64,000 bases of DNA, taken from positions 1,228,901-1,292,900 of the forward strand of contig CBDHCY010000005.1 in assembly GCA_965261485.1 (NCBI GenBank). Reading direction: 5' to 3'. The stretch comes from Leptospiria bacterium (GTDB lineage: Bacteria; Spirochaetota; Leptospiria; Turneriellales; CBDBES01). Shown piece by piece: positions 4,921 to 39,561 of this stretch (position 1 is the stretch's first letter; each line of letters opens with the position of its first letter). The notes under the pieces are model-generated. The model was given only the letters and a program-made list of their open reading frames with translations. It was not told the DNA's origin and searched no databases. The position numbers and the translations under genes were made by a program.

Positions 4921-6420
4921 TTATATTTTGATTTTTCTAATTTGGCTTCCCCCTTTTTCTTTACTATCAAGAATTTCATAGCCAGCTTTTAAAATTTCTT
5001 CTCTTAGTTTATCTGCTTTTAAAAAATTTTTATCAGACCTCGCTTCATTCCTTTTATTTAATAACTCAAGAATTATCAGAGGAACATCTTTCACTTTTAT
5101 TAAGTCATTATGGCAAGATAAAATACTAAGTACCGAATCATAATATTGAAAAGATTTGTAAATACGTTGTTTGATTGCTTTCGGCATACCTTCACTCAAT
5201 TCATCCAACCAAATATTTACTTGTTTCAAAAAATCATGAAATATAGCTAAAGTTTTTGCTGTATTCAAATCATCTTTCAGATAATTTAAAAATTTTTTTT
5301 CATGCTCTTTACAGATAATATCTATCGAAGCAAAATTTGTGATTGAGTTATCTTTTTGAACTTTAGCCATCAAAAAACGATTATAGGTACCCCATATTCC
5401 TTTGATTGTTTGACTAATCGCATCTAAACCTGCAAGCGTGAAATTTATTTTTTGTCTGTAGGGCACCGAGATTAAAAAATATCGAATAGCCATTGCATGA
5501 TAACCTTTTTTGAGTAAATCTCTCAATGTATAAAAGTTATTTGATGATTTAGACATTTTTCTACCATCTACCTGTAAATGTTCACAGTGTAGCCAATACT
5601 TCGCTAATTTACCACCAAAGGCAGTTTCACTCTGGGCAATTTCATTTTCATGATGTGGGAAGATAAGATCAATACCACCAGTATGAATATCTAATTGTTT
5701 GTCAAAGAGACGATGAATCATAGCAGAGCATTCGAGATGCCACCCTGGGCGCCCCTTACCAAAAGGGCTCTCCCATGCAAGAGACTCTTCTGATCTTTCT
5801 TTTTTCCATAGAACAAAATCTCTGATATCTTCTTTTGAATACTCATCGGTGTTATATCTCAGCCCTGTTTTCATTTTAGAAAGATCAAGTTTAGACAATT
5901 TACCATAAGTATCTTTTTTTTTTATTGAAAAATATAGAGAGCCATCTTTTTCATAGGCTGCCTGTTTATTCAAGAGATATTGAATGAGTTGAAGCATTTC
6001 ATTGATGTGTTCCGTCGCTTTTGGATAATCAGAAGCCGGTCGAATATTCATTTGGCGAATATCTTCAAAAAACATTTGGATAAATGGTTGAGTGTACTCT
6101 GTTAGATCGTTTAAATTAGGTATAACTTTTTTTTTAAATACAGCATTGATTGTTTTATCATCAACATCGGTGATATTCATAGCACTTTTGACCTGATAAC
6201 CAGCAAGGCATAACGATTTTACCAAAATATCAGTGAAAAGATATGAACGAAAATTTCCAATATGAGCAACATCATAAACAGTTGGTCCGCAAGAATAAAT
6301 ATTAACCTTTTCTCGATTAAGCTCTTTAGGCATGAAATCTTCAAGTTTTTTACTTAGTGAATTAAAGAATCTAAAAGGTCTAACGCCACACTTTATTTTT
6401 TGATCTAATATCTTTTTCAT
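4921..6420 (-). CDS. cysS: Cysteine--tRNA ligase
   Basis: 499-aa ORF with the class I aaRS HIGH-type motif (VAHIGNFRSY) and KMSKS (RKMSKSSNNF). WHLECSAM and FPHHENEIAQSE are typical of CysRS. Confidence 0.95.
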   Translation of the reverse strand: MKKILDQKIKCGVRPFRFFNSLSKKLEDFMPKELNREKVNIYSCGPTVYDVAHIGNFRSYLFTDILVKSLCLAGYQVKSAMNITDVDDKTINAVFKKKVIPNLNDLTEYTQPFIQMFFEDIRQMNIRPASDYPKATEHINEMLQLIQYLLNKQAAYEKDGSLYFSIKKKDTYGKLSKLDLSKMKTGLRYNTDEYSKEDIRDFVLWKKERSEESLAWESPFGKGRPGWHLECSAMIHRLFDKQLDIHTGGIDLIFPHHENEIAQSETAFGGKLAKYWLHCEHLQVDGRKMSKSSNNFYTLRDLLKKGYHAMAIRYFLISVPYRQKINFTLAGLDAISQTIKGIWGTYNRFLMAKVQKDNSITNFASIDIICKEHEKKFLNYLKDDLNTAKTLAIFHDFLKQVNIWLDELSEGMPKAIKQRIYKSFQYYDSVLSILSCHNDLIKVKDVPLIILELLNKRNEARSDKNFLKADKLREEILKAGYEILDSKEKGGSQIRKIKI

Positions 6421-6608
6421 TTTAACGTTGTACCTCCAATAACTCTATCGCAGACTACTAGTCATGCTCTTTCTAAGAATTATTAATTTAGCAACTTAAG
6501 TTTAGTGTAAGTTTCGTCTCGAAGTGCAAGAAGTGAATTCGAACAATAAAATACAGTAACTTTTTAAAATAGAATTGACAAAACAGCTTTTATGTAAGAA
6601 AAAAAGAG

Positions 6609-6875
6609 ATGCCCACTGTAAAAAAAAGAGTAAAATCAGAGATTGATATTCAAAATCTTGATAGCACACAGATGCTATTTTATCTCATACAACGAATTGA
6701 TCAGAAAATAGATCGTCTTGACGATCGAATTGATAATGTCGAAAGCAAACTCAGCGACAGAATTGATAGTGTCGAAAATAAACTCAGCGATCGAATTGAT
6801 AATAATTTCAAATGGTTGGTCGGTATTATAATTACTGGTTTTCTCACGATGTTAGGCAGTTTCTTTTTGAAATAA
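6609..6875 (+). CDS. Bdr-like coiled-coil protein with C-terminal membrane anchor, copy 1 (2 x 11-aa repeats)
   Basis: 88 aa. Conserved N-terminus MPTVKKRVKSEIDIQNLDSTQMLFYLIQRIDQKIDR, repeats IDNVESKLSDR and IDSVENKLSDR, and hydrophobic tail NNFKWLVGIIITGFLTMLGSFFLK. Confidence 0.8.
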   Translation: MPTVKKRVKSEIDIQNLDSTQMLFYLIQRIDQKIDRLDDRIDNVESKLSDRIDSVENKLSDRIDNNFKWLVGIIITGFLTMLGSFFLK

Positions 6876-6900
6876 TTTTATCTTTTTTGATTTATAGTTA

Positions 6901-6934
6901 ACTTACTTATAAAAATATAATTATATAAGTAAGT
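6901..6934 (+). terminator. AT-rich inverted repeat in the spacer after each Bdr-like gene (possible terminator; first copy given)
   Basis: The arms acttacttata (6901-6911) and tataagtaagt (6924-6934) are exact reverse complements around a 12-nt loop. An equivalent hairpin (ttacttata ... tataagtaa) recurs in every spacer. There is no strong T-tract, so terminator function is uncertain. Confidence 0.35.
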
Positions 6935-7029
6935 AAGATTTAAATTATTGAAAGTGAATTCGAACAACAAAATATAGTAACTTGCTAAAATAGAATTGAC
7001 AAAACAGCTTTTATGTAAGAAAAAAAGAG

Positions 7030-7329
7030 ATGCCCACTGTAAAAAAAAGAGTAAAATCAGAGATTGATATTCAAAATCTTGATAGCACACAGATGCTATT
7101 TTATCTCATACAACGAATTGATCAGAAAATAGATCGTATTGATGACAAAATTGATAGTGTCGAAAATAAACTCAGCGACAGAATTGATAATGTCGAAAAT
7201 AAACTCAGCGACAGAATTGATAGTGTCGAAAATAAACTCAGCGATCGAATTGATAATAATTTCAAATGGTTGGTCGGTATTATAATTACTGGTTTTCTCA
7301 CGATGTTAGGCAGTTTCTTTTTGAAATAA
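7030..7329 (+). CDS. Bdr-like coiled-coil membrane-anchored protein, copy 2 (3 repeats)
   Basis: 99 aa with the same N- and C-termini as copy 1 and three ID[SN]VENKLSDR units. Confidence 0.8.
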   Translation: MPTVKKRVKSEIDIQNLDSTQMLFYLIQRIDQKIDRIDDKIDSVENKLSDRIDNVENKLSDRIDSVENKLSDRIDNNFKWLVGIIITGFLTMLGSFFLK

Positions 7330-7483
7330 TTTTATCTTTTTGGGTTTATAGTTAAATTACTTATAGAAATATAATGATATAAGTAAGTAAGATTTAAATT
7401 ATTGAAAGTGAATTCGAACAACAAAATATAGTAACTTGCTAAAATAGAATTGACAAAACAACTTTTATGTAAGAAAAAAAGAG

Positions 7484-7804
7484 ATGCCCACTGTAGAAAA
7501 AAGAGTAAAATCAGAGATTGATATTCAAAATCTTGATAGCACACAGATGCTATTTTATCTCATACAACGAATTGATCAGAAAATAGATCGTATTGATGAC
7601 AAAATTGATAGTGTCGAAAATAAACTCAGCGATCGAATTGATAGTGTCGAAAGCAAACTTAGCGATCGAATTGATAGTGTCGAAAATAAACTCAGCGACC
7701 GCATAGAGAAACTAGAGAAAAAGGTTGATAATAATTTCAAATGGTTGGTCGGTATTATAATTACTGGTTTTCTCACGATGTTAGGCAGTTTCTTTTTGAA
7801 ATAA
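7484..7804 (+). CDS. Bdr-like coiled-coil membrane-anchored protein, copy 3 (3 repeats plus EKLEKKV module)
   Basis: 106 aa with three 11-aa units followed by an extra 7-aa EKLEKKV segment before the NNFKW anchor. Confidence 0.8.
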   Translation: MPTVEKRVKSEIDIQNLDSTQMLFYLIQRIDQKIDRIDDKIDSVENKLSDRIDSVESKLSDRIDSVENKLSDRIEKLEKKVDNNFKWLVGIIITGFLTMLGSFFLK

Positions 7805-7958
7805 TTTTATCTTTTTGGGTTTATAGTTAAATTACTTATAGAAATATAATTATATAAGTAAGTAAGATTTAAATTATTGAAAGTAGATTTGAACAATAAA
7901 ATACAGTAACTTTTTAAAATAGAATTGACAAAACAGCTTTTATGTAAGAAAAGAAGAG

Positions 7959-8324
7959 ATGCCCACTGTAGAAAAAAGAGTAAAATCAGAGATTGATATT
8001 CAAAATCTTGATAGCACACAGATGCTATTTTATCTCATACAACGAATTGATCAGAAAATAGATCGTATTGATGACAAAATTGATAGTGTCGAAAATAAAC
8101 TCAGCGATCGAATTGATAGTGTCGAAAGCAAACTTAGCGATCGAATTGATAGTGTCGAAAATAAACTCAGCGATCGAATTGATAGTGTCGAAAATAAACT
8201 CAGCGATCGAATTGATAGTGTCGAAAATAAACTCAGCGATCGAATTGATAATAATTTCAAATGGTTGGTCGGTATTATAATTACTGGTTTTCTCACGATG
8301 TTAGGCAGTTTTTTCTTGAAATAA
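7959..8324 (+). CDS. Bdr-like coiled-coil membrane-anchored protein, copy 4 (5 repeats)
   Basis: 121 aa with five IDSVE[NS]KLSDR units and the same termini. Confidence 0.8.
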   Translation: MPTVEKRVKSEIDIQNLDSTQMLFYLIQRIDQKIDRIDDKIDSVENKLSDRIDSVESKLSDRIDSVENKLSDRIDSVENKLSDRIDSVENKLSDRIDNNFKWLVGIIITGFLTMLGSFFLK

Positions 8325-8478
8325 TTTCATCTTTTTGGGTTTATAGTTAAATTACTTATAGAAATATAATTATATAAGTAAGTAAGATTTAAATTATTGA
8401 AAGTAAATTTGAATAACAAAATATAGTAACTTTCTAAAATAGAATTGACAAAACAGCTTTTATGTAAGAAAAGAAGAG

Positions 8479-8877
8479 ATGCCCACTGTAGAAAAAAGAG
8501 TAAAATCAGAGATTGATATTCAAAATCTTGATAGCACACAGATGCTATTTTATCTCATACAACGAATTGATCAAAAAATAGATCGTATTGATGACAAAAT
8601 TGATAGTGTCGAAAATAAACTCAGCGACAGAATTGATAATGTCGAAAATAAACTCAGCGATCGAATTGATAGTGTCGAAAGCAAACTTAGCGATCGAATT
8701 GATAGTGTCGAAAATAAACTCAGCGATCGAATTGATAGTGTCGAAAATAAACTCAGCGATCAAATTGATAGTGTCGAAAATAAACTCAGCGATCGAATTG
8801 ATAATAATTTCAAATGGTTGGTCGGTATTATAATTACTGGTTTTCTCACGATGTTAGGCAGTTTTTTCTTGAAATAA
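8479..8877 (+). CDS. Bdr-like coiled-coil membrane-anchored protein, copy 5 (6 repeats)
   Basis: 132 aa with six 11-aa units (one ends in Q: KLSDQ) and the same termini. Confidence 0.8.
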   Translation: MPTVEKRVKSEIDIQNLDSTQMLFYLIQRIDQKIDRIDDKIDSVENKLSDRIDNVENKLSDRIDSVESKLSDRIDSVENKLSDRIDSVENKLSDQIDSVENKLSDRIDNNFKWLVGIIITGFLTMLGSFFLK

Positions 8878-9031
8878 TTTCATCTTTTTTGATTTATAGT
8901 TAAATTACTTATAGAAATATAATTATATAAGTAAGTAAGATTTAAATTATTGAAAGTAAATTTGAATAACAAAATATAGTAACTTTCTAAAATAGAATTG
9001 ACAAAACAGCTTTTATGTAAGAAAAGAAGAG

Positions 9032-9319
9032 ATGCCCACTGTAGAAAAAAGAGTAAAATCAGAGATTGATATTCAAAATCTTGATAGCACACAGATGCTA
9101 TTTTATCTCATACAACGAATTGATCAAAAAATAGATCGTATTGATGACAAAATTGATAGTGTCGAAAATAAACTCAGCGACAGAATTGATAATGTCGAAA
9201 ATAAACTCAGCGACAGAACAGAAAAACTAGAGAAAAAGGTTGATAATAATTTCAAATGGTTGGTCGGTATTATAATTACTGGTTTTCTCACGATGTTAGG
9301 CAGTTTTTTCTTGAAATAA
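9032..9319 (+). CDS. Bdr-like coiled-coil membrane-anchored protein, copy 6 (2 repeats plus EKLEKKV module)
   Basis: 95 aa with two 11-aa units, then TEKLEKKV, and the same termini. Confidence 0.8.
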   Translation: MPTVEKRVKSEIDIQNLDSTQMLFYLIQRIDQKIDRIDDKIDSVENKLSDRIDNVENKLSDRTEKLEKKVDNNFKWLVGIIITGFLTMLGSFFLK

Positions 9320-9473
9320 TTTTATCTTTTTGGGTTTATAGTTAAATTACTTATAGAAATATAATTATATAAGTAAGTAAGATTTAAATTATTGAAAGTA
9401 AATTTGAACAATAAAATACAGTAACTTTTTAAAATAGAATTGACAAAACAGCTTTTATGTAAGAAAAGAAGAG

Positions 9474-9806
9474 ATGCCCACTGTAGAAAAAAGAGTAAAA
9501 TCAGAGATTGATATTCAAAATCTTGATAGCACACAGATGCTATTTTATCTCATACAACGAATTGATCAGAAAATAGATCGTATTGATGACAAAATTGATA
9601 GTGTCGAAAATAAACTCAGCGACAGAATTGATAATGTCGAAAATAAACTCAGCGATCGAATTGATGATGTCGAAAATAAACTCAGCGATCGAATTGATAG
9701 TGTCGAAAATAAACTCAGCGATCGAATTGATAATAATTTCAAATGGTTGGTCGGTATTATAATTACTGGTTTTCTCACAATGTTAGGCAGTTTCTTTTTG
9801 AAATAA
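9474..9806 (+). CDS. Bdr-like coiled-coil membrane-anchored protein, copy 7 (4 repeats)
   Basis: 110 aa with four 11-aa units (IDSV, IDNV, IDDV, IDSV) and the same termini. Confidence 0.8.
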   Translation: MPTVEKRVKSEIDIQNLDSTQMLFYLIQRIDQKIDRIDDKIDSVENKLSDRIDNVENKLSDRIDDVENKLSDRIDSVENKLSDRIDNNFKWLVGIIITGFLTMLGSFFLK

Positions 9807-10123
9807 TTTCATCTTTTTTATAAAAATAAACTTCATCGGTGAGTGAACTCTCTTGTTTGAGCTAGAGTAGAGATTTAGCATATAAATATAGCTTTTTTCC
9901 ATTATTTGCACACTTTTGTATTTGATATTATTTTAAAAAAGATGTCATCTTTATAATATAATAGAAAAATATTTTATTTTTTTTATTTATTTTGGACTAT
10001 CACAATTCGACAAAACTTAAATTAAAACTCAAAAAATGAACAGAAGATTAAAAAAAATAAATATTTCTTGATATTACGTGTTACTTAAAAATTATTATAC
10101 ATAGTGGGTCTGTAACATTCACG

Positions 10124-10813
10124 ATGTTAGATTATGAAAGAAAGAAAATAGCAGAATTAGAGCTTCTTTATGTTCAGGGTGATAAAGAAGCTCCTTCCAT
10201 TTGTCTTTTGCATGGATATGGTGCTAATGCTTTTGACTTACTGCCCTTTTCAAAAATAATCCAACCAACAAATACCCTGAAGCTAAATTGGTATTTTCCA
10301 AAAGCCCCTTTAGCTGTTAATCTTGGTATGGGCTATCAAGGACGTGCTTGGTTTCCTCTTAATTTAGAAGCCTTGCAAAACTTCTCTTCTTCAAAACATT
10401 ATTCTGAAATTGAGCCTGAGGGCATGAAAAAAGCTAGAGAGCAATTAATTGCAATGCTAGTAGAACTTGATTTAAAACCATCTCAACTTATTTTAGGTGG
10501 TTTTAGCCAAGGTGCTATGATGACTGTTGATGTTTGTTTGCATCTTAAAGAAGCTTTAAAGGCTTTTATACTTCTTTCAGGAACTCTTGTAAATAGCCCT
10601 CAATGGAATAAAAAAGCAAAAGATCACTTAAAGACAAAATTTTTTCAAAGTCATGGTAAAGCTGACCCTGTTCTACAAATCAATGGTGCTCTCAAATTGT
10701 ATAATCTTTTAAAGGATGCTAATTTTGAAGGAAGCTTTTTTGAATTTGAAGGCGAGCATGATATTCCTCAAGAAGTAATTATTGAAGTAACAAATTTTTT
10801 ATCAAAAATTTAA
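10124..10813 (+). CDS. Phospholipase/carboxylesterase-family alpha/beta hydrolase
   Basis: 229 aa with the nucleophile elbow GGFSQGAMM and the family-typical LHGYGANAFDL and FPKAP...RAWFP motifs. Confidence 0.8.
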   Translation: MLDYERKKIAELELLYVQGDKEAPSICLLHGYGANAFDLLPFSKIIQPTNTLKLNWYFPKAPLAVNLGMGYQGRAWFPLNLEALQNFSSSKHYSEIEPEGMKKAREQLIAMLVELDLKPSQLILGGFSQGAMMTVDVCLHLKEALKAFILLSGTLVNSPQWNKKAKDHLKTKFFQSHGKADPVLQINGALKLYNLLKDANFEGSFFEFEGEHDIPQEVIIEVTNFLSKI

Positions 10814-12792: not shown

Positions 12793-14085
12793 TCAAACTG
12801 CTAAACTCTTTGCCCAAGAAAGAGCTTTATTAAGACCAGATATCGTCAATTTTGTTTGCCAAAAAAACCTTGTATAATCTTCTGATTTTAATATCTTTTG
12901 TTTTCTCTCATTGTTTTTGGATAAAGACAAATAATTTTGAATTAAATGTATATTTTTATCTAAATTTACTGTTTCTCTACCATCAGACATAAAGTCTTCT
13001 CCTAAATCATGCATGGAATATTCAAAGGAATGTCGCTCAAAATCTCCCGATTTTTTTTTCACTGAGCAATGAATTACAACAGGTTTTGACAATGAAAATG
13101 TAAGTGAGCCTTCTCTACCTTTTCGTATGACAATATTGATAGGGAATCCTGCAAATTCTCCTAATGACAACATTTTTTCGAGAAAAGGTTCATGAAAGGC
13201 GGAGGTAATTGAAATACCTGCACCCATAACACGAGTAAATTTTTCTAAGGTCGCCATAAAAGGACGTTTAATCATACGTTTTCTTAGATTTCGCCAGTGC
13301 TCCCATGAGCCACTAAGAGCCTTGTGATCAAGATATGTTCCCCACTGTGATTCATGTAAGACAGGCTTTTGATTAGAGTTTATAAATGGAGCATTCAGTT
13401 TTTCACCTATATTTTTTAATGTGACACCATATTTTGGTCCTGATGAATCACCACAAAGAGAAAGAACATAAAAACCTTGATCTCTCAAAGATAAAGCAAT
13501 CAAAGGTGTAATGAGAGGAGATTTTTCTACACCATTAAATGGTTCTGATAACTGAATAAGGTTTTTATTTGTTACCATTTTTTGAGAAAAGGGTGCCTGC
13601 AAGGTTTTCATAAAAGAAGAATGTAAACCCGAATATTCTCCGTTAGAGGCATATCTAAGCCTCAACCACGTAGCACTCATTGCCCTTGCCATATCATCCT
13701 CTTCAGTGGAATATTTAGTAATATTGAATAAAAAATCTCCCAGTTTCTCTGACTCTTTACGAGAAAATATATCACCTCGCAAAATTTTAAGAAGATTACT
13801 TTGAACAGATAATTTTGTGTGAGGGATAAATTGATTTATGAAAGAGTCTGGCTTGATCTCCCTCCCTGAGAGTAAATATTTTAAAAGCAATTGTTCATGT
13901 TCGTTGGGTCCCTTGAAATAAAGGGCCACAGCTAAAACTGTTTTTTGAATAGGATCAATCACTAGATCATCAATCTCACTTTTCTGAAAGGTATTGAGTA
14001 AATTTTTGACTAAATCTTGACTAAGAGAGCGATTGCCTTTTTTACCAATCGAAACAAGCTTGATCGCTTCTTTTAGATAATGCAA
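12793..14085 (-). CDS. Hypothetical protein, distantly glycosyltransferase-family-3 (TrpD)-like
   Basis: 430-aa ORF. The N-terminal helical region (YLKEAIKLVSIGKKGNRSLSQDL) and the central LCGDSSGPKYGVTLKNIGEKL and KRPFMATLEKF loosely parallel TrpD motifs. The canonical GTGGD and KHGN motifs are absent, so function is unknown. Confidence 0.4.
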   Translation of the reverse strand: MHYLKEAIKLVSIGKKGNRSLSQDLVKNLLNTFQKSEIDDLVIDPIQKTVLAVALYFKGPNEHEQLLLKYLLSGREIKPDSFINQFIPHTKLSVQSNLLKILRGDIFSRKESEKLGDFLFNITKYSTEEDDMARAMSATWLRLRYASNGEYSGLHSSFMKTLQAPFSQKMVTNKNLIQLSEPFNGVEKSPLITPLIALSLRDQGFYVLSLCGDSSGPKYGVTLKNIGEKLNAPFINSNQKPVLHESQWGTYLDHKALSGSWEHWRNLRKRMIKRPFMATLEKFTRVMGAGISITSAFHEPFLEKMLSLGEFAGFPINIVIRKGREGSLTFSLSKPVVIHCSVKKKSGDFERHSFEYSMHDLGEDFMSDGRETVNLDKNIHLIQNYLSLSKNNERKQKILKSEDYTRFFWQTKLTISGLNKALSWAKSLAV

Positions 14086-14192
14086 AATGACCTGATAATA
14101 ATCACAAAAACACGATTAAGCAGCCCATAAGAATTAGGCTTGGGCTATTTAAAATAAGAACCACTCAACAGAAAATAAAATAAAGCTTCAGG

Positions 14193-15050
14193 CTAGCTTT
14201 CCTTTATTTGACGACAAAATAAAATAAAAATTCCACAAGTTACAAACATAATCAAACTATACACTGCTGCGACAATTCCATAACTAGTATTCGCAAGAAG
14301 CAGTGTTGCGATTGAAATAGCTAGAGTTCCATTTTGGATTCCACTTTCAATTGCAATTGAAATACGCTGTTTGATGGATAAGTTTAAAATTTTACCAATA
14401 CCTAACCCAATTGACATTGCTGAAACATTTAATATGAGAGCTAATACACCCGCTTTTTGAAAATAAGGGATAACATTCTTTCTTTCGGCCATGATAATTC
14501 CAACAAAAATTAATACAAACACAATAACGGAAGCTCGGCGAACAATTGGTTCTACTTTTTTAGCGAATAGTTCTTTTTTAGCTCTCGTTAACATACCTAG
14601 AGTAACTGGAATAATTACAACAACAAATACTTGAGCGATTGTAGATAAAATATTTAGTTGTCTATCAGTATCTGACCCAAGTATCTCCCGAATACCAAAA
14701 TTAATCAGAAAAGGTATAGTAAACAATGTGATAAAACTACAAATTGCTGTTAAACTAACAGAGAGAGCAGTATCCCCTTTCGCCAAATAAGTTATCATGT
14801 TAGAGGTTGACCCACCCGGACAAGCGACCAAAATAACAATACCGATTAAAATCTCAGGAGGAGCAGAAATAGACTTAATCAAGATGAAACCAATAATTGG
14901 CAATAATATCAACTGACTCGTTAAACCAGCTAACATTGCTTTCGGCTTAACAAAAACTTGACGAAAATCCTCAAGAACCAATGATAGCCCCATCCCAAAC
15001 ATTATAATGATCAAAGACACAGCTAATATTATAGTAGATACTTTATCCAT
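14193..15050 (-). CDS. Bile acid:sodium symporter (BASS/SBF) family transporter
   Basis: 285 aa and polytopic. The N-terminus MFGMGLSLVLEDFRQVFVKPKAMLAGLTSQLILLPIIGF and ACPGGSTSN are characteristic of SBF-like transporters. Confidence 0.85.
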   Translation of the reverse strand: MDKVSTIILAVSLIIIMFGMGLSLVLEDFRQVFVKPKAMLAGLTSQLILLPIIGFILIKSISAPPEILIGIVILVACPGGSTSNMITYLAKGDTALSVSLTAICSFITLFTIPFLINFGIREILGSDTDRQLNILSTIAQVFVVVIIPVTLGMLTRAKKELFAKKVEPIVRRASVIVFVLIFVGIIMAERKNVIPYFQKAGVLALILNVSAMSIGLGIGKILNLSIKQRISIAIESGIQNGTLAISIATLLLANTSYGIVAAVYSLIMFVTCGIFILFCRQIKES

Positions 15051-15235
15051 ATATTTTAAACTCCAAATTTTTTTTACACATCACATACCATCCAGATATC
15101 AATAACCTTAGGTAAGATTTTTAAGATAGCCAGACTAACTTCTGGTTACTTAATTTAGCACAAATATCCCGACAAGTAAAATAAATGATTTATACATATT
15201 TAAAATATTTAGATCGTCTCAAGAAAGTTTTCCCT

Positions 15236-16988
15236 TCCACCCTTCGCTCAGAAATCAAAGCATCACTCGTGACTATCGGTCAGAGCACCCTCCAATCGCC
15301 ATCGCGATTGGCGATCGTCACTCTTCGCTCAGCGAGCAAGGCATCACTCGCTACTATCGGTCGCCACTCTTCGCTCAGAGATCAAAGCATCACTCGCGAT
15401 TGTCCGTCGACCTCCGCCCAGCGATCAAAGCATCACTCGCGATTGGCGGTCGGCCGTTTATCGTTGCCCTTCGAGCGAAGCATCACTCGTGACTATCGGT
15501 CAGAGCACCCTCCAATCGCCATCGCGATTGGCGATCGTCACTCTTCGCTCAGCGAGCAAGGCATCACTCGCTACTATCAGTCGCCACTCTTCGCACAACA
15601 AAGTATCACTAGCGATTATCGATCGGCACTCTTCGTACAACAAAGCATCACTCGCGACTTGTCGATCGTCACTCTCCGCTCAGAGATCAAAGCATCACTC
15701 GCGACTATCGGCGTTTTCTTCGCTCAGCGAGTAAAGCATCACTCGCGACTTGTCGATCGGCGTTTTCTTCGCTCAGCGAGTAAAGCATCACTCGCGACTT
15801 GTCGATCGGCGTGCCCTTCGCTCAGAGATCAAAGCATCACTCGTGACTGTCGGTTGGCTCTCTTCGCTCAGAGATCAAAGCATCACTCGCGACTGGCGGT
15901 CGTCACTCTTCGCTCAGAGATCAAAGCATCACTCGCGACTATCGGCGTTTTCTTCGCTCAGCGAGTAAAGCATCACTCGCGACTTGTCGATCGGCGTGCC
16001 CTTCGCTCAGAGATCAAAGCATCACTCGTGACTGTCGGTTGGCTCTCTTCGCTCAGAGATCAAAGCATCACTCGTGACTAGCGATCGTCACTCTTCGCTC
16101 AGCGAGTAAGCATCACTCGAGACTGTCGGTCGTCACCCTTCGCACAACAAAGCATCACTCGCGACTGTCGATCGTCACTCTTCGCACAACAAAGCATCAC
16201 TCGCGGCTTGTCGATCGCCACTCTTCGCCTTGCGAGCGAAGCATCATCCACAATTATCGATCGCCACTCTCCGCACAACAAAGCATCACTCGTGACTGGC
16301 GGTCGTCACTCTTCGCTCAGAGATCAAAGCATCACTCGCGATTGGCGATCGTCACTCTTCGCTCAGCGAGCAAGGCATCACTCGCTACTATCGGTCGCCA
16401 CTCTTCGCTCAGAGATCAAAGCATCACTCGCGATTGTCCGTCGACCTCCGCCCAGCGATCAAAGCATCACTCGCGATTGGCGGTCGGCCGTTTATCGTTG
16501 CCCTTCGAGCGAAGCATCACTCGAGACTATCGGTCGCCACCCTTCGCACAACAAAGTATCACTAGCGATTATCGATCGGCACTCTTCGTACAACAAAGCA
16601 TCACTCGCTACTATCGGTCGCCACTCTTCGCTCAGAGATCAAAGCATCACTCGCGATTGTCCGTCGACCTCCGCCCAGCGATCAAAGCATCACTCGCGAT
16701 TGGCGATCGTCACTCTTCGCTCAGCGAACAAAGCATCACTCGCGACTGTCGGTCGTCACTCTTCGCCCAGCGATCAAAGCATCACTCGTGACTGGCGGTT
16801 GACACTCTTTGTCTGCGAGTGCATCACTCGCGACTGTCGATCGTTTATCGTTGCCCGGAGAGCGAAGCATCACTCGTGACTGTCGATCGTCACCCTTCGC
16901 CCAGAGATCAAAGTATCACTCGCGATTATCGGTCGGCGTGCCCTTCGCCTAGCGAGCGAATCGCCATTCGTGACTGGCGGTCGACCGT
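15236..16988. repeat. GC/CpG-rich co-oriented tandem array of degenerate 42-47-bp units (about 37 units by eye), abutting the stop codon of the lipoprotein gene at 16989
   Basis: The core GCATCACTCG[CT]GA recurs every 42-47 bp (for example at 15261, 15341, 15387, 15430 ... 16867, 16913). Consensus unit: aaagcatcactcgcgactgtcggtcgtcactcttcgctcagagatc. The array has higher-order duplications (15302-15490 matches 16336-16524, and 15261-15360 matches 15481-15580). GC content contrasts sharply with the AT-rich surroundings. Confidence 0.95.
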
Positions 16989-18965
16989 TTATCGTTGCCC
17001 GGGGAGCAGAGTATCGTATGACGCACATACGCCGTTTGTTATTGGGCTGACACATCTTTTGATCGCAGGCAGCTGCTTGGCAGTGCCTAGGTCCCAAGCA
17101 CTACCTAAACCATCGGGGTGCATGCCAGTTATGCTCTTTAGCTGGGCCAGCGTAAGGCCCGTCGCATTTACACTACTCCCAGAATTTACACTACTCCCGG
17201 AACCCTGTGCCTTCTTATTCTCAAGCGTTCGTTCGGTGACATTCACACTTTGGGGTGCGTCGGTGTTCCAATAACTATCTGTTATCGTCATAATAAAAGA
17301 AGAAGCAAAAGGAGAAGCGCCCAGCAGACCACCTGAATTAGAAACAGCAATAGCAATACTACTAAAAGAAGAGATTTTACCAGAACCACTAAAATAACTA
17401 TTAGTTATTACTAAAGATTTCTCAGAATAACCCACCAGACCACCTGAAGTAGAACCAGCACTAGTATTATTAGAAGAAGAAAATATTTCACCAGAGCCAT
17501 TAAAATAACTATTCACTATCGTCAAAGAAGCAGAAGACTGGCCCACCAGACCGCCTGAAGTAGAATGCAAAACATTGGCATAAGAAGATATATCACCAGA
17601 ACCACTAACATAACTATTCATTATTACTAAAGAATTCTTAGAATAACCCACCAGACCGCCTGAGCCAAAAGACTTAAAAGTATTGGTAAGCTTGTTAGAG
17701 TAAGAAGAAACCCCAGCAGAACCACTAAAAATACTATTTATAATTACTAAACCAGTATCAGTTGAGGCGAAAACTTCACCCACCAAACCGCCTGATCGAG
17801 ACTGTTCAGAAGAACTAAAGACCCCACCTGAGCCACTGAAAGTGCATTCGCTTATTGTCAGAGAACCAGAAACACGACCAACCAAACCACCCACAGAATT
17901 AAAAGTAGTAACCAGAGCAGCATTAGCATAGATCGAGCCAGAGATGATCTCCACATTGCGAATCATTCCTCCATCTACCTGACCAAATAAACCGACAGCT
18001 ACAAGACTTGAATGCACCCAAAGATTGGCGATCGTATGATTATTTCCATCAAAAGTGCCAGTGAAGCTAGCAATAGTAGAGCCAATGGGTTCCAAAGAGG
18101 TGTCTATACTGGTGTCAATCACAGTTATCCGCTCGCCTGCATCGTCTTCATCACCGTCGGCATTTTTATCGATGCTCACCTCTGTTGTATCGATCACCCC
18201 ATTAGGTGTACCGTTCTTTCCACCGCCTGTATCAAGCAAGCTCAAAAGGTCAATGTTGGCTGTTAGCTCGTAGCCGTTGCAACTTCCTGAGGAGCAACCG
18301 CTTGAATTATTAGGTCCACCATTCTTCACACTTCTATAACTTGTGCCCGCCAAATTATGACGCATGTTATTGAGCATCTCAGCGGTATATATTTCAATTA
18401 AGCCATCACCATCATGATCAGCCTTAGAGCCTCCACCAGAGATCTCAACACCCGAAGCATAATTAAAGCTCATGTCATAAGCGAAAAGCTTATAAAAATA
18501 ATGGGTTGAAGCTGTAGCCTCGGAATCGATGAATGTAGTTTCGCTTGAGTTATACACCACCACACTTGAGGCACCAATTGACACGCCACTCGCATAATCT
18601 TGCCCTGTCGTGGGGGCATCTGATATGCTGCTTTCACTTCTCAAGATTAAAACCTTAGAAAAATCATCATCGCTAGGCTCGCTCCAAGTTAGAGTGATGC
18701 TAGTGCTATCTAAACTTGAGAAGCCACCACTTATAACGTTCTTTGGTGATGTTTTATCTTCTTCAGACCTAACACCCGGTCCTGGCATATCAGGTGCATC
18801 AGGTGCATCAGGTGAAACAGGTGGAACATTGTTGGGATTTTCTTTAGAACAAGACGCACCAAAAACGATACAAAATAATAAAAAACTAGCGACCACAGCC
18901 ATTAAACCACCTTTGATCACGCGAGCCACATAAAGTCTCATCCAATATTGTACATTTTCACACAT
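16989..18965 (-). CDS. Surface lipoprotein with FN3-like domain, Ca-binding DxDGDG motif and 6 GLUG-type (GGLVG) repeats (paralog L1)
   Basis: The ORF runs to 18998. I prefer the ATG at 18965 because GAGGAGG lies 6 nt upstream. Lipobox-type signal ...LLFCIVFGASC, FN3-like ITLTWSEPSDDDFSKVLILRS...YFYKLFAYD, then DHDGDGLIEIYTAEMLNNM. Six modules of GGLVGxSxxSLxIxNSYFSGSGxxSS follow, with the conserved C-terminus SYWNTDAPQSV...CASYDTLLPGQR. Confidence 0.85.
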   Translation of the reverse strand: MCENVQYWMRLYVARVIKGGLMAVVASFLLFCIVFGASCSKENPNNVPPVSPDAPDAPDMPGPGVRSEEDKTSPKNVISGGFSSLDSTSITLTWSEPSDDDFSKVLILRSESSISDAPTTGQDYASGVSIGASSVVVYNSSETTFIDSEATASTHYFYKLFAYDMSFNYASGVEISGGGSKADHDGDGLIEIYTAEMLNNMRHNLAGTSYRSVKNGGPNNSSGCSSGSCNGYELTANIDLLSLLDTGGGKNGTPNGVIDTTEVSIDKNADGDEDDAGERITVIDTSIDTSLEPIGSTIASFTGTFDGNNHTIANLWVHSSLVAVGLFGQVDGGMIRNVEIISGSIYANAALVTTFNSVGGLVGRVSGSLTISECTFSGSGGVFSSSEQSRSGGLVGEVFASTDTGLVIINSIFSGSAGVSSYSNKLTNTFKSFGSGGLVGYSKNSLVIMNSYVSGSGDISSYANVLHSTSGGLVGQSSASLTIVNSYFNGSGEIFSSSNNTSAGSTSGGLVGYSEKSLVITNSYFSGSGKISSFSSIAIAVSNSGGLLGASPFASSFIMTITDSYWNTDAPQSVNVTERTLENKKAQGSGSSVNSGSSVNATGLTLAQLKSITGMHPDGLGSAWDLGTAKQLPAIKRCVSPITNGVCASYDTLLPGQR

Positions 18966-19059
18966 AAAACGCCTCCTCAGACATTGACCGCATTTCACTA
19001 TGCCGATCTTGCAAATAAATTAAGTTAGAATCGCCTTCAATCTTGATGGGTGCTTCAAC

Positions 19060-19122
19060 ACCACGAAAAAAATAAAATAAAAGGCCAAAGATTTCAGCAA
19101 AAGCCACGACTTTTGCTGAAAT
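19060..19122 (-). terminator. Rho-independent-type terminator hairpin between the microsatellite and the L1 gene
   Basis: Perfect 13-bp inverted repeat atttcagcaaaag (19091-19103) / cttttgctgaaat (19110-19122) with a 6-nt loop. On the minus strand it is followed by ctttggccttttattttattttttt. Confidence 0.55.
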
Positions 19123-19232
19123 AACATGCATGATAATTAGGGCTAACGCCCCGCTTCTAAAATTTTTGAGAAAAATGCCGCGAAGGCACGACCTATTTTT
19201 TTTAGAGAATAAACTAAGACCTAAGTCTAGTG

Positions 19233-19386
19233 TCTGTAGTTCTGTAGTTCTGTAGTTCTGTAGTTCTGTAGTTCTGTAGTTCTGTAGTTCTGTAGTTCTG
19301 TAGTTCTGTAGTTCTGTAGTTCTGTAGTTCTGTAGTTCTGTAGTTCTGTAGTTCTGTAGTTCTGTAGTTCTGTAGTTCTGTAGTTC
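19233..19386. repeat. Perfect octanucleotide microsatellite (tctgtagt / actacaga), about 19 copies
   Basis: Uninterrupted tctgtagt repeats run from 19233 to about 19386. They lie between the stop of the Rpn gene (19563) and the terminator hairpin upstream of L1. Confidence 0.97.
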
Positions 19387-19562
19387 ATTCATTTTTCCAA
19401 GCCCCACACAGAGACAGCCTCAGTCAACAATGCCTGCACATGTTGTCAACGTTTTTTTATTTTTTATGTAAAATTGATGTCGCAACTTCGCACATGACGT
19501 GTGAAAAAAGCGGGTAAAAAAAGAGACTATTTTCTGCTAATCACAAACGATGCCAGATCCGC

Positions 19563-20564
19563 CTATGGTCGTAAATGCTCAATCTCTTCTATAGAAAGAC
19601 CGGTGCTTCTTGAGATCACTTTAATAGAGAAACCCTCTTTCAAGAGACTTTGAGCTACTTCAGCCTTGCCCTTAGCCACGCCCTTAGTCATGCCCTTAGT
19701 CATGCCCTCGGTTATGCCCTCGGTTATGCCTTCGGCTCTGCCCTTAGTCATGCCCTTAGTCATGCCCTCAGTTATGCCCTTAGCTATTAGCTCGTCTGCA
19801 ATGGATCTCATATCCCCTCCTGCCTTTGGTGAAATGTATTGCCCAGCACTCTTTACAATAAAATCAATAGTAAACCCGCCAGTGCTAGTAATAATATAGT
19901 TCAATAAAACATCAAGCATTTTCTTATTTTCTTGAGAGATTCGTGCATAATAATCTTTGAAAAGATCTTCTAAGCGTGACCTGCTCGATAAAAACCAAAT
20001 ATCCTGTAGACTTTTTAAAAATGCCTGTACAGCCACAGAGAAATCGGTGAACTCTGTTTTATCTGAGCGAAGATCAAGTAATTCATAGTGAAAGTCTGGT
20101 ATGTATTTTTGTAAAGACTTTCTCAGATGCTCAGGAATCACTAAAGAACTGCTGAAGAGCGTGGGAATATCCCACTCTTTTTTTCCGTGATAAAGCACTA
20201 AAGGAATCACGGGCATTGTGCTCGTTTTATAAATTCCAGCTAAATACATGAGAAGCTGTGAATGAATATTTTTTTCTTTATACGATTTATGTTCTATCAG
20301 ACAAAAAACGCCCAGCCTTTTTGATTCCAAAGATTTCGCAGATTCTGAATCTGATTGCTTTTTGATAGGTACGCTGTAGAGAATATCAGTGAATCGTTCT
20401 TGATCTGTTGCATCAATAAAGCACCCTTTCTCTATTTGTAATTTTATAAAGTCTAGCTCTGATGTGATCTCTTTAGGCAGAGCATTTTTAAGAAAATCTA
20501 CCGCATAAGTTTTTTGTGATAAAACTTGTTTGGTTATGATGTCGTGTTGGTTTAGCTTTGCCAT
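19563..20564 (-). CDS. Rpn/YhgA-like recombination-promoting nuclease (PD-(D/E)XK putative transposase family)
   Basis: 333 aa. The N-terminus (HDIITKQVLSQKTYAVDFLKNALP ... RFTDILYSV ... FCLIEHKSYKEK...QLLMYL) matches the Rpn/YhgA-like nuclease core. The C-terminus has 5-aa repeats (GITEG/GMTKG, 15-bp units, about 19672-19790) and a helix-rich tail (AQSLLKEGFSIKVISRSTGLSIEEIEHL) typical of the family. Confidence 0.8.
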   Translation of the reverse strand: MAKLNQHDIITKQVLSQKTYAVDFLKNALPKEITSELDFIKLQIEKGCFIDATDQERFTDILYSVPIKKQSDSESAKSLESKRLGVFCLIEHKSYKEKNIHSQLLMYLAGIYKTSTMPVIPLVLYHGKKEWDIPTLFSSSLVIPEHLRKSLQKYIPDFHYELLDLRSDKTEFTDFSVAVQAFLKSLQDIWFLSSRSRLEDLFKDYYARISQENKKMLDVLLNYIITSTGGFTIDFIVKSAGQYISPKAGGDMRSIADELIAKGITEGMTKGMTKGRAEGITEGITEGMTKGMTKGVAKGKAEVAQSLLKEGFSIKVISRSTGLSIEEIEHLRP

Positions 20565-20687
20565 AAGATGTTCATCTTATAATTGATAGACAAAGCAAAA
20601 ACCATTAAAAAATACTTTTGAAAGCGTCAATGGGGATTCAAGCTCTAAAGTTTGGGCAGGGCAGAATATTACTTACTCCCGACCTGC

Positions 20688-21785
20688 GAACAAAGCATCA
20701 CTCGCGACTGTCGGTCGTCACTCTCCGCACAACAAAGCATCACTCGCGATTATCGATCGTCACTCTTCGCCCAGCGATCAAAGCATCACTCGTGACTGGC
20801 GGTTGACACTCTTTGTCTGCGAGTGCATCACTCGCGACTATCGGCGTTCCCTTCGCCCAGAGATCAAAGCATCACTCGCGATTATCGATCGTCACTCTTC
20901 GCCCAACGATCAAAGCATCACTCGTGACTGTCGGGTCGTCACTCTCCGCACAACAAAGCATCACTCACAACTGTCGGTCGTCGTGCCCTTCGCTCAGAGA
21001 TCAAAGCATCACTCGCTACTTGTCGATCGACACCCTTCGCACAACAAAGCATCACTCGCGATTGTCCGTCGACCTCCGCCCAGCGATCAAAGCATCACTC
21101 GCGATTGGCGATCGTCACTCTTCGCTCAGAGAGCGAAGCATCACTCGCGATTGGCGATCGTCGACTCTCCGCCCAGCGATCAAAGCATCACTCGCGATTG
21201 GCGATCGTCGACTCTCCGCCCAGCGATCAAAGCATCACTCGCGATTGGCGATCGTCGACTCTCCGCCCAGCGATCAAAGCATCACTCGCGATTGTCCGTC
21301 GACCTCCGCCCAGCGATCAAAGCATCACTCGCGATTATCGGTCGTCACTCTCCGCACAACAAAGCATCACTCGCGACTATCGGCGTTCCCTTCGCCCAGA
21401 GAGCGAAGCATCACTCGCGACTGTCGGGTCGCCACTCTTCGCCCAGAGATCAAAGCATCACTCGTGACTGTCGGGTCGTCACTCTCCGCACAACAAAGCA
21501 TCACTCACAACTGTCGGTCGTCGTGCCCTTCGCTCAGAGATCAAAGCATCACTCGCTACTTGTCGATCGACACCCTTCGCACAACAAAGCATCACTCGCT
21601 ACTGTCGATCGTCACTCTTCGCACAACAAAGCATCACTCGCGACTGTCGATCGTCACTCTTCGCACAACAAAGCATCACTCGTGACTGGCGGTCGCCACT
21701 CTTCGCCCAGCGATCAAAGCATCACTCGCGATTATTCGGTCGGCGTGCCCTTCGCTCTGCGAGTGCATCACTCGCGACTGTCCGT
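20688..21785. repeat. Second GC/CpG-rich co-oriented array of the same 42-47-bp unit family (about 25 units by eye), abutting the stop codon of the lipoprotein gene at 21786
   Basis: The same GCATCACTCG[CT]GA core recurs at 20694, 20737, 20782 ... 21719, 21765. There is an internal duplication (20914-21060 matches 21454-21600) and a shared segment with array 1 (20782-20838 matches 16779-16835). Orientation relative to the adjacent gene is the same as in array 1. Confidence 0.95.
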
Positions 21786-23687
21786 TTATCGTTGCCCGGG
21801 GAGCAGAGTATCGTATGACGCACATACGCCGTTTGTTATTGGCCTGACACATCTTTTGATCGCAGGTAATTGCATATCGGTGCCTAGGTCCCAAGCACTA
21901 CCTAAACCATCGGGGTGCATGCCAGTTATGTTTTTTAGCTGGGCCAGCGTAAGAGCCCCATCCATACCCACAGCATTACCTCGTGCCTTCTTATCTTGGA
22001 GCGTTCGTTCGGCGACATTCACACTTTGGGGTGCGTCGGTGTTCCAATAACTATCTGTTATCGTTATAGAAGCAGCAAAACCATTTCCTATCAAACCACC
22101 TGAATTAGAACCAGCAATAGCAATACTAAAAGAAGAGATTTTACCAGAACCACTAAAATAACTATTAGTTATTGGCAAAGTACCTTCAGAAGAACCCACC
22201 AGACCACCTGAAGAAGAATTAGCAAGCCCATGATTAGAATAAGAAAAGATTTCACCAGAGCCATTAAAATAACTATTCATTATTGTCAAAGAAGCCTTAG
22301 AATAACCCACCAGACCACCTGAAGCAGAATGCAAAGCCTTGGTATAAGAAGATATATCACCAGAACCACTAACATAACTATTCATTATTACTAAAGACTT
22401 CCCAGAATAACCCACCAGACCGCCTGAGCCATAAGAGTCAGCAGTATTGGTAGGCTTGCTAGAGTAAGAAGAAACCCCAGCAGAACCACTAAAAATACTA
22501 TTTATAATTACTAAACTAGTACCAATCGAGGCGGAAACTTCACCCACCAAACCGCCTGATCGAGACTGTATAGAAGAACTAAAGACCCCACCTGAGCCAC
22601 TGAAAGTGCATTCGCTTATTGTCAGAGAACCATAAACAAGACCAACCAAACCACCCACAAAATTAAAAGCAGTAGCCAGATCAGCATAAATCGAGCCAGA
22701 GATGATCTCCACATTGCGAATTTGAACAGTTTCACTAGCTCCTCCATCTACCTGACCAAATAAACCGACAGTTGAAAGAGTTGAATGCATCCAAAGATTG
22801 GCGATGGTATGATTATTTCCATCAAAAGTGCCAGTGAAGTTATTAGTAGTAGCAATGGGTATCCAGGAGGTGTCCATACTGATGTCAATCACTGTTATCC
22901 GCTCGCCTGCATCGTCTTTATCACCGTCGGTATTTTTATCGACACTCTCCTCTGTTGTATCGATCTCACCGTTGGGGGCAACATAACCATTCTCACCAAT
23001 TTCACCAATCCCATCAAGCAAGCTCAAAAGGTCAATGTTGGCTGTTAGCTCGTAGCCATGGCAACCTGAGAGGCAACCGCTTGAATTAGGTCTACCATTC
23101 TTCACACTTCTATAACTTGTGCCCGCCAAGTTATGACGCATGTTATTGAGCATCTCAGCCGTATATATTTCAATTAAGCCATCCTCATCATGATCAGCCT
23201 TAGAGCCTCCACCAGAGATCTCAACACCCGAAGCATAATTAAAGCTCATGTCATAAGCGAAAAGCTTATAAAAATAATGGGTTGAAGCTGTAGCCTCGGA
23301 ATCGATGAATGTAGTTTCGCTTGAGTTATACACCACACTTGAGGCACCAATTGACACGCCACTCGCATAATCTTGCCCTGTCGTGGGGGCATCTGATATG
23401 CTGCTTTCACTTCTCAAGATTAAAACCTTAGAAAAATTAGTATCACTAGGCTCGCTCCAAGTTAGAGTGATGCTAGTGCTATCTAAACTTGAGAAGCCAC
23501 CACTTATAACGTTCTTTGGTGATGTTTTATCTTCTTCAGACCTAACACCCGGTCCCGGCATATCAGGTGCATCAGGTGAAACAGGCGGAACATTGTTGGG
23601 ATTTTCTTTAGAACAAGACGCACCAAAAACGATACAAAATAATATCAGAGCTTGAGCGATCTTGCAGAGTAATTTTATTATATTCAT
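21786..23687 (-). CDS. Surface lipoprotein with FN3-like domain, DxDxDG motif and 6 GLUG-type repeats (paralog L2)
   Basis: The ORF extends to a TTG at 23723. I prefer the ATG at 23687 (MNIIKLLCKIAQALILFCIVFGASC). The N-terminal roughly 170 aa are almost identical to L1. The centre is diverged and the C-terminus is ...CASYDTLLPGQR. Confidence 0.85.
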   Translation of the reverse strand: MNIIKLLCKIAQALILFCIVFGASCSKENPNNVPPVSPDAPDMPGPGVRSEEDKTSPKNVISGGFSSLDSTSITLTWSEPSDTNFSKVLILRSESSISDAPTTGQDYASGVSIGASSVVYNSSETTFIDSEATASTHYFYKLFAYDMSFNYASGVEISGGGSKADHDEDGLIEIYTAEMLNNMRHNLAGTSYRSVKNGRPNSSGCLSGCHGYELTANIDLLSLLDGIGEIGENGYVAPNGEIDTTEESVDKNTDGDKDDAGERITVIDISMDTSWIPIATTNNFTGTFDGNNHTIANLWMHSTLSTVGLFGQVDGGASETVQIRNVEIISGSIYADLATAFNFVGGLVGLVYGSLTISECTFSGSGGVFSSSIQSRSGGLVGEVSASIGTSLVIINSIFSGSAGVSSYSSKPTNTADSYGSGGLVGYSGKSLVIMNSYVSGSGDISSYTKALHSASGGLVGYSKASLTIMNSYFNGSGEIFSYSNHGLANSSSGGLVGSSEGTLPITNSYFSGSGKISSFSIAIAGSNSGGLIGNGFAASITITDSYWNTDAPQSVNVAERTLQDKKARGNAVGMDGALTLAQLKNITGMHPDGLGSAWDLGTDMQLPAIKRCVRPITNGVCASYDTLLPGQR

Positions 23688-36828: not shown

Positions 36829-39561
<2,733 letters not shown>

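Follow-up and report, generated by a model that had tools for sequence, protein, structure and literature searches.

A row of seven small repeat-bearing genes in a 64-kb stretch of chromosomal DNA from a Leptospiria bacterium (contig CBDHCY010000005.1; this stretch is referred to below as the window, position 1 being its first letter) raises the question of whether the Bdr proteins of Borrelia have counterparts in other spirochetes, and how such an array could have come about. Bdr proteins associate with the inner membrane (PMC10016077, PMC4370689), vary in repeat number between strains (PMC3303823), have no known function (PMC10016077), and were called "unique to Borrelia" in one genome paper (PMC4370689). 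The array studied here is probably a lineage-specific, recombination-driven tandem amplification of a gene from an XhlA/Bdr superfamily, whose products would be tail-anchored coiled-coil rods of graded length.

Array layout and protein architecture

The seven genes occupy positions 6609-9806 on the plus strand as intact, head-to-tail open reading frames (ORFs), each with a product of different length, and are numbered here 1 to 7 from 6609 rightward. Copy 1 (6609-6875), the most divergent of the seven (L37, R40, K5), encodes 88 aa with two hendecad (11-aa) units; copy 2 (7030-7329), which the family profile matches with an E value of 1e-41 in hmmsearch, encodes 99 aa with three units; and copy 3 (7484-7804) encodes 106 aa with three units and an additional 7-aa module, IEKLEKKV. 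They are followed by copy 4 (7959-8324; 121 aa, five units) and by copy 5 (8479-8877; 132 aa, six units), which is the longest and served as the query for the Bdr comparison. Copy 6 (9032-9319; 95 aa) has two units and the 7-aa module TEKLEKKV, and its product is identical to a database protein (P0003) with a precomputed PF10779 match, while copy 7 (9474-9806; 110 aa, four units) leads into a unique 3′ flank. The six spacers between the genes (6876-7029, 7330-7483, 7805-7958, 8325-8478, 8878-9031, and 9320-9473) are all 154 bp long and near-identical.

Tandem Repeats Finder detected a 33-bp tract inside each of the seven genes (2.2-6.2 copies, 86-95% matches), enclosed in a higher-order period of 442-475 bp. 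A codon-by-codon split into 33-nt blocks gave 2, 3, 3, 5, 6, 2, and 4 complete 11-aa units for copies 1 to 7, with the unit pattern (L/I)(S/D)D(R/K)ID(S/N/D)VE(N/S)K, and placed the extra heptad, [I/T]EKLEKKV, in copies 3 and 6 only. The N-terminal 36 residues vary at one position across the seven copies (K or E at residue 5), and the 24-residue C-terminal anchor, NNFKWLVGIIITGFLTMLGSFFLK, is invariant in all of them. The arrangement described in the original prediction, namely seven head-to-tail units with near-identical spacers, a common 36-aa N-terminus and C-terminal anchor, the exact series of 33-bp copy numbers, and an EKLEKKV module in copies 3 and 6, is thus reproduced in full, residue 5 being the sole N-terminal difference. 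Minus-strand ORFs of 55-81 aa also run across the array, but we interpret these as by-products of the repeats, since it is the plus strand that carries the family homology. In addition, an A8 run lies in codons 4-7 (GTA AAA AAA AGA) of copies 1 and 2 (6618-6627 and 7039-7048), and an A7 run lies just 5′ of the ATG in copies 1-3 (e.g., 6599-6605 and 7020-7026); both runs are interrupted by G in later copies, and the uninterrupted tracts could be prone to slippage.

An AlphaFold2 model of the 88-aa copy, built from a 69-sequence alignment, consists of one continuous helix over residues 19-87 (mean predicted local distance difference test score of 90.9), with low confidence only at residues 1-18, which probably form a short, basic, disordered N-terminus. 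The membrane anchor is predicted to comprise the last ~20 residues, where the hydrophobic stretch WLVGIIITGFLTMLGSFFL is followed by a single residue, K. When the sequence is read along the helix, hydrophobic residues are spaced 4-3-4-3 from I30 and 3-4-4 through the repeats, in which I, V, and L occupy positions 1, 4, and 8 of IDSVENKLSDR, and the spacing continues into the anchor, so that a continuous hydrophobic seam, with 3 of every 11 positions hydrophobic within the repeats, runs over the 48-92 residues before the anchor. All length changes are multiples of 11 residues or one heptad, and therefore the seam stays in phase. Such a seam is typical of an oligomeric coiled-coil stalk, and its narrowness suits a coiled-coil core more than a surface that binds lipid. 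With a rise of 0.15 nm per residue, the stalk from residue 19 to the anchor would measure from ~7 nm in the 88-aa protein to ~14 nm in the 132-aa protein.

Coiled-coil and transmembrane prediction had been proposed as a check on the original claim that these are envelope coiled-coil proteins; "envelope" is corrected here to a predicted tail anchor in the inner membrane. The absence of a signal peptide, the single residue after the anchor, and the general behavior of tail-anchored proteins together favor, with some reservation, a protein inserted in the inner membrane with its stalk facing the cytoplasm.

Relationship to the XhlA and Bdr families

To which family the array genes belong can be approached through their shortest member. 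The 88-aa copy matches the XhlA family (PF10779) with 37.0 bits over profile positions 6-66 of 67, above the gathering score of 34.7 bits, and a precomputed PF10779 match likewise exists for each of the database proteins of 88, 95, and 99 aa. When 1.84 billion representative proteins were searched exhaustively with phmmer, 461 relatives were returned at E ≤ 1e-3, many of which are 80-200 aa long, with alignments that extend through the C-terminus. In an alignment of 69 full-length relatives, anchor residues W69 and G72 are near-invariant, the consensus reads ...RIDxLxxxIDxxxxxLxxRIDxxxxxLxxKxDxxFxWxxGI..., and XhlA is the commonest Pfam match (33 of the 69). Characterized members of the XhlA family, including XhlA of the Bacillus subtilis element PBSX and gp24.1 of phage SPP1, are likewise small (~80-90 aa) and consist of a coiled-coil N-terminal region and one C-terminal transmembrane (TM) helix; the helix and hydrophobic C-terminal stretch predicted for the array proteins match the published description of XhlA and gp24.1 (PMC6316719). 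An XhlA-like superfamily of widespread small tail-anchored coiled-coil proteins therefore appears to be the best classification for the array genes, and a better one than that offered originally, when an XhlA-like profile search was suggested as a check. The gene family itself is not new: existing automated annotation assigns the short copies to PF10779.

Several observations weigh against this classification. The XhlA scores of the 132-aa copy (31.6 bits) and the 106-aa copy (19.6 bits) are both under the cut-off, the likely reason being that the additional repeats of the longer copies interrupt the match. Many unrelated coiled-coil Pfam families also reach E < 1e-3, coiled-coil and repeat composition inflates similarity scores, and a pairwise BLAST comparison with SPP1 gp24.1, on which experiments have been done, gave no significant match (E of 0.66). 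In separate searches, a sequence comparison with the PDB produced sub-threshold coiled-coil matches only, and hence no solved relative, and a contig search with the coiled-coil pattern D[RK][IL]DDK[IM]D gave generic matches only (Bryobacterales, Acidimicrobiales).

Relatives with the same architecture, themselves uncharacterized, occur in other bacteria. Small tail-anchored hendecad proteins with the anchor motif D[SN]NFKW..G were found in Cysteiniphilum, in Neomoorella (N. humiferrea WP_338832837.1, a named member in the P0109 cluster), and among metagenomic proteins (P0012, P0018, P0019, and P0023). The protein from Cysteiniphilum halobium (WP_440682158.1; P0010) has near-identical KIDSVDSKLSA hendecads and an SNFKW anchor, and a protein from Leucobacter sp. 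Psy1 has the same hendecad without the C-terminal anchor. The four metagenomic proteins also carry an N-terminal S.Q(M/L)LF(Y/F) motif and come from metagenomes that also gave the closest CysS relatives of the window; relatives with this motif are single-copy genes in housekeeping contexts. Other family members are present on viral contigs, near regulatory, partition, or replication genes rather than in lysis cassettes. On a viral contig, a ParA-like gene is followed by a 66-aa ORF and an 84-aa XhlA-like gene, an order that echoes the ParA, partition protein, and bdr genes of Borrelia cp32 (L028:4899-6165; L014:411-2330); this single case hints at a link between the family and partition modules. 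Tiny hydrophobic ORFs follow some single-copy or viral members (L018:8417-8554 and L027:6242-6400), encoding a 45-aa lipoprotein-like product with a poly-proline tail and a 52-aa one-TM product, in a pattern that is inconsistent across loci.

The likeness to Bdr (PFam80 or KID-repeat proteins; IPR003900, PF02524) claimed in the original prediction has a clear basis. Both groups follow a three-part plan of N-terminal region, 11-residue repeats, and hydrophobic anchor, share a [KR]-I-D core with hydrophobic a/d/h positions and a conserved N.KW..G anchor motif, and form multi-copy families in a spirochete in which repeat number differs between paralogues or strains. The array proteins contain 2-6 copies of an 11-residue repeat with a [KR]-I-D/E core, together with a C-terminal anchor that appears homologous to the Bdr anchor. 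BLASTP aligned 96 aa at 46% identity with a Bdr protein of B. miyamotoi, the alignment extending through the anchor, with RIDSVENKLSD in register with KIDTVENNLNN and NNFKWLVGIIITGFLTMLGSF opposite NNKWIFGLTFALWLTVLGGF, and hhalign of the window clade against seven Bdr proteins aligned the anchor only (97.9% probability, E of 6e-13, 21 columns). In a tblastn search of 72,556 plasmids with the 132-aa copy, 288 of the 297 records matched were from Borrelia or Borreliella (E down to 1e-16), with the matches falling under genes annotated "Bdr family repetitive protein", a result biased by the strong enrichment of the database in Borrelia plasmids.

Profile searches specific to Bdr, which had been proposed as a check of this likeness, set a limit to it. 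The NCBIfam models Bdr_N_group1 (NF040499) and Bdr_N_group2 (NF040500), which have a cut-off of 40 bits and are matched by genuine Bdr proteins at 100 and 91 bits, appear neither in the full list of 7 families for the 88-aa copy nor among the top 25 matches, at E ≤ 10, of the 106-aa copy (39 families) and the 132-aa copy (54 families). The KID repeat (PF02524; cut-off of 20.8 bits) is matched below threshold by the 132-aa copy (18.0 bits) and the 88-aa copy (11.5 bits) and is not among the 25 best matches of the 106-aa copy, whereas genuine Bdr proteins score 40.6-41.7 bits; the array repeats are mostly RID, not KID. When family matches and the seven Bdr proteins were ranked together (156 proteins), the Bdr proteins stood at positions 51-133 for the 88-aa copy, behind ~50 non-Borrelia proteins that include Cysteiniphilum and metagenomic ones, while one Bdr stood 5th for the repeat-rich 132-aa copy. 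Once the repeats are discounted, Bdr is thus not the nearest relative of the array proteins. The N-terminal domains of the two groups are unrelated, the array proteins are shorter (88-132 aa versus 143-243 aa for the seven Bdr proteins compared), and the array genes form one tight chromosomal cluster beside housekeeping genes in a host of Leptospirales-like lineage, whereas bdr genes are scattered on the linear or circular plasmids of Borrelia, prophages of the cp32 type. The resemblance in repeat and anchor therefore stands, while membership in Bdr proper does not. Genuine Bdr proteins, in turn, match XhlA over their C-terminal 60 residues with sub-threshold scores of 22.7 and 30.1 bits (E of 1e-4 and 5e-7). 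In our reading, the window proteins and Bdr would both belong to a wide XhlA-like superfamily where hendecads of the form xIDxVExxLxx are frequent, with Bdr as a Borrelia-specific branch that has its own N-terminal domain and with the array genes falling outside Bdr as strictly defined. Within the literature searched, Bdr and XhlA are not mentioned together in any paper.

Three other accounts of these proteins can be set against this reading. If the genes were true Bdr orthologues, that is, a chromosomal, vertically inherited version ancestral in spirochetes, then the spirochete identity of both hosts, the almost exclusively Borrelia bdr matches among plasmids, the common a/d/h hendecad, the similar anchors (NFKW..G....LT.LG.F versus NNKW..G....LT.LG.F), and the 5th rank of one Bdr would follow naturally; this is nevertheless unlikely, given the unmatched Bdr_N models, the low KID score, the database bias, the occurrence of the same hendecad in Leucobacter and many metagenomic proteins, and the placement of gammaproteobacterial Cysteiniphilum ahead of Bdr for the 88-aa copy, in which non-repeat sequence dominates. 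An origin as phage lysis genes, in which XhlA-type one-TM holin components would act with a partner holin and endolysin, or as a prophage remnant, is doubtful to a similar degree. XhlA and SPP1 gp24.1 each have a C-terminal TM helix; killing by either one requires the two-TM holin, XhlB or gp26, and neither acts without this holin and an endolysin (PMC6316719, PMC5589764). The array genes differ from XhlA in lacking an adjoining XhlB-type holin or endolysin, in their nonphage site, in the expansion of the hendecad repeats, and in forming seven graded paralogues, which would be unprecedented in a lysis cassette. The above-threshold XhlA score of the 88-aa copy, weak PHROG matches ("hemolysin" phrog_1193 and "holin" phrog_689), the family members on viral contigs, and the position of bdr genes among prophage genes all speak for a phage connection; in the Borrelia plasmids sampled (L013, L021, and L022), bdr genes adjoin tape measure, portal, and PBSX-family terminase genes. 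Near the array, however, no holin, endolysin, or phage gene was seen (no phage-family scan of the wider window was made), no tRNA or integrase-type boundary was present, and tblastn against phage genomes gave no match; moreover, the viral homologues lie near regulatory, partition, and replication genes, and the Slt-like neighbor of a second array, described below, has a housekeeping-type architecture. It is very unlikely, finally, that the 11-mers are amphipathic helices lying on a membrane or lipid surface in the manner of apolipoproteins, perilipins, or LEA-type proteins. Although Apolipoprotein A1/A4/E is the top Pfam match of the 132-aa copy (36.4 bits), apolipoprotein A-IV is the best PDB sequence match (E of 4e-6), and one relative bears the source name "apolipoprotein A1/A4/E family protein", the Pfam score is far under the family cut-off (36 versus 90), the hydrophobic positions (3 of 11) form a narrow a/d/h seam that is unbroken into the TM helix, proline punctuation is absent, and the heptad insertion keeps the coiled-coil register.

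Variation and origin of the array

How the array arose can be read in part from differences between its copies. In pairwise difference tables, single-nucleotide polymorphisms (SNPs) group the copies as {2,3}{5,6}{4,7} in the upstream region, as {1,2,3}{4,5,6}{7} in the C-terminal 75 nt, and as {2,5,6,7} versus {3,4} in the first internal repeat; because the groupings differ from segment to segment, unequal crossover and gene conversion are indicated. The anchor region contains three substitutions, all of them synonymous. Each spacer consists of a ~65-80 bp junction with an AT-rich imperfect palindrome, followed by the common upstream segment, and a 30-nt spacer motif occurs six times against zero expected by chance. 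The palindrome (~27+27 nt), located 15-70 nt beyond every stop codon but that of copy 7 (6890-6945 in the spacer between copies 1 and 2), was not found upstream of copy 1, downstream of copy 7, elsewhere in the window, or in the fetched loci. A structured RNA at this site was ruled out, as the spacer between copies 3 and 4 (7805-7958) is no stabler than shuffled sequence (z = 0.24), and a terminator role was likewise discarded, as no intrinsic plus-strand terminator is predicted between the genes. The region upstream of copy 1 (6514-6608, plus strand) ends in ~75 bp that are repeated before every copy. This segment contains TAAAAT and TTGACA hexamers, with AAGAG just before the ATG, and is a putative promoter, its consensus matches in a promoter scan being weak.

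Comparison with other genomes points to a variable locus. In a closely related contig (L001), the left flank shares 98.9% identity with that of the window, and the stretch from copy 7 into the right flank ~96%. Where the window has seven genes, L001 has a single intact gene of 99 aa, whose repeats are variants of its own, and a second, 5′-truncated copy that retains repeats, heptad, and anchor and is bordered by a duplicate of the 3′ flank. Another contig (L002) begins inside a second array (positions 1-1568), which has 39-nt spacers and four or more units. The units span ~174, 124, 96, and 98 codons, of which only the 124-aa unit is intact, the others having indels like those of low-coverage long-read errors; the array lies directly upstream of a gene for an Slt70-like lytic transglycosylase of 777 aa, and beyond it L002 and the window show no similarity. 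In three more distant relatives (L015, L016, and L017), with CysS proteins 64-67% identical to that of the window, unrelated genes and no family member stand on the side of cysS that corresponds to the array. The block cysS-SpoU methylase-ATP-grasp/FMN protein-PD40/OmpA protein-4HBT-SHMT is kept in L015 and L017, while in L016 cysS is followed by rpsP-khpA-trmD instead, and one relative with synteny on the cysS side carries two FlaA genes. Because the family gene is absent beside cysS in all three, the array appears to be lineage-specific and to lie at a synteny break, a synteny comparison with related genomes having been among the checks suggested originally. Among 40 other loci examined, L001 and L002 excepted, no arrays were found.

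The preferred explanation, a lineage-specific amplification, would have proceeded as follows. Unequal crossover would have duplicated units of ~420-550 bp, each comprising the upstream segment, the gene, and the palindromic junction; in-frame slippage or recombination of the 33-bp units would have produced the differing repeat numbers; and gene conversion would have kept the ends uniform. Each product would retain a basic N-terminus, one uninterrupted helix forming a coiled-coil stalk, and a C-terminal inner-membrane anchor. The original proposal that the nested repeats are a substrate for recombination agrees with the SNP mosaics and with the L001 locus. Its corollary, a population-variable set of proteins of graded length, is in line with the differences in copy number and unit length read from L001 and L002.

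An assembly artefact, in which repeats would have misled the assembler as to copy number or order, is highly improbable. The units are near-identical and roughly 420-550 bp long, and the closely related L001 locus is much shorter, as such an artefact might entail. Each unit, however, is marked by its own SNPs and repeat count, the SNP patterns being mosaic rather than duplicated; every one of the seven ORFs is intact; the contig of origin measures 2.13 Mb; tandem units of the same family occur independently on two other contigs; and L001 is an allele of its own, with NVKNK and SVEDK variants and a different junction, not a collapsed array.

Other points tell against parts of the amplification account. 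In conservation the coding ends exceed the spacers by little, and for this reason their uniformity could come from recent amplification, not selection. Copy number and unit length appear to differ between close relatives, as read from L001 and L002, which are 2x and 5x coverage contigs of one metagenome with evident indel errors. Furthermore, the ORFs flanking 23 family members revealed no consistent operon partner, only sporadic small TM or lipoprotein ORFs.

As to function, the proteins may, on a tentative view drawn from their predicted form, act as a membrane-anchored coiled-coil scaffold or spacer whose homo- or hetero-oligomers differ in reach; a phage-type lysis role, like that of XhlA with XhlB, is less likely than this and improbable in itself. 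A further idea is that the graded lengths are themselves selected, in which case rods reaching ~7-14 nm from the inner membrane would together serve as a spacer or ruler coded by length, or would form hetero-oligomers in a combinatorial system. This idea arises because the five heptad-free genes take each of the numbers 2, 3, 4, 5, and 6 once, because the heptad genes fill intermediate lengths, and because the L002 units are also unequal. If repeat numbers were uniform between 2 and 6, five distinct values would arise by chance in 120/3125 (~4%) of cases, a post hoc figure that is only suggestive, and selected lengths are considered rather doubtful. Were they nonetheless real, the Bdr proteins of Borrelia would be a plasmid-borne counterpart, and both groups would derive from phage XhlA-like genes.

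Genomic neighborhood and implications

The setting of the array is chromosomal and consistent with a Leptospira-like genome. The window proteins have exact copies on a 2.13-Mb NCBI/ENA contig, and the GC content of the window is ~31%. On the left, cysS (cysteine--tRNA ligase; 4921-6420, minus strand) is divergent from the array, and its identity is supported by a Pfam tRNA-synt_1e match on the 98.9%-identical L001 copy. CysS homologues number thousands; the nearest overall are proteins from metagenome-assembled genomes (58-67% identity), and the nearest named ones are from Spirochaetia, Leptospirales, Leptospiraceae, Turneriella, and Leptospira (45-54% identity). These relatives and the synteny agree with the chromosomal site beside cysS and the Leptospira-like context that the original prediction had assigned, and the host is probably an uncultured spirochete of a deep-branching, Leptospirales-like lineage. 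On the right, a 229-aa Abhydrolase_2/FSH1 serine hydrolase is encoded at 10124-10813 (plus strand), the same gene that flanks the L001 locus on its right, and a gene for a 336-aa zinc-type alcohol dehydrogenase lies 3′ of it; neither product is a lysis protein. No further family copy occurs elsewhere in the 64-kb window, and Rfam and tRNA scans of the window detected no Rfam RNA element and no tRNA-type integration site.

Two other features of the window were observed. A GC-rich island at 14000-24000 (40-49% GC versus a background of ~31%) may have been horizontally acquired; a 669-aa ORF inside it (16989-18998, minus strand) has no Pfam or NCBIfam match. At 31406-42303 on the minus strand, 21 kb from the genes studied here, lies a tandem array of large GLUG-motif (PF07581) paralogues of 848, 433 + 451, 910, and 867 aa, in which the 433 + 451 aa pair is possibly one split gene and only the 848- and 867-aa ORFs match GLUG in Pfam. 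A 48%-identical GLUG protein is encoded directly upstream of the single-copy family member P0012, and P0023 adjoins another large protein, which has repeats of the GGLVG type and matches GLUG faintly (L020:4234-6798; L019:1945-3732), so that the neighborhood of GLUG and family genes recurs in relatives.

The novelty of this locus lies in its arrangement, a ladder of seven chromosomal genes in a spirochete other than Borrelia, and in the bridge that it forms between Bdr and the XhlA superfamily. The array offers a clean natural case of nested repeat dynamics, with 33-bp repeats inside ~450-bp units and a complete series of protein lengths, in a locus that differs between near-identical strains. 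The Bdr module of repeats plus anchor exists outside Borrelia, both in this spirochete and, for example, in the gammaproteobacterium Cysteiniphilum, and both the locus and Bdr connect with XhlA, a family of one-TM holin components from phages. These connections provide an evolutionary frame for Bdr research and point to more tractable models for Bdr, including B. subtilis XhlA, SPP1 gp24.1, and free-living relatives.

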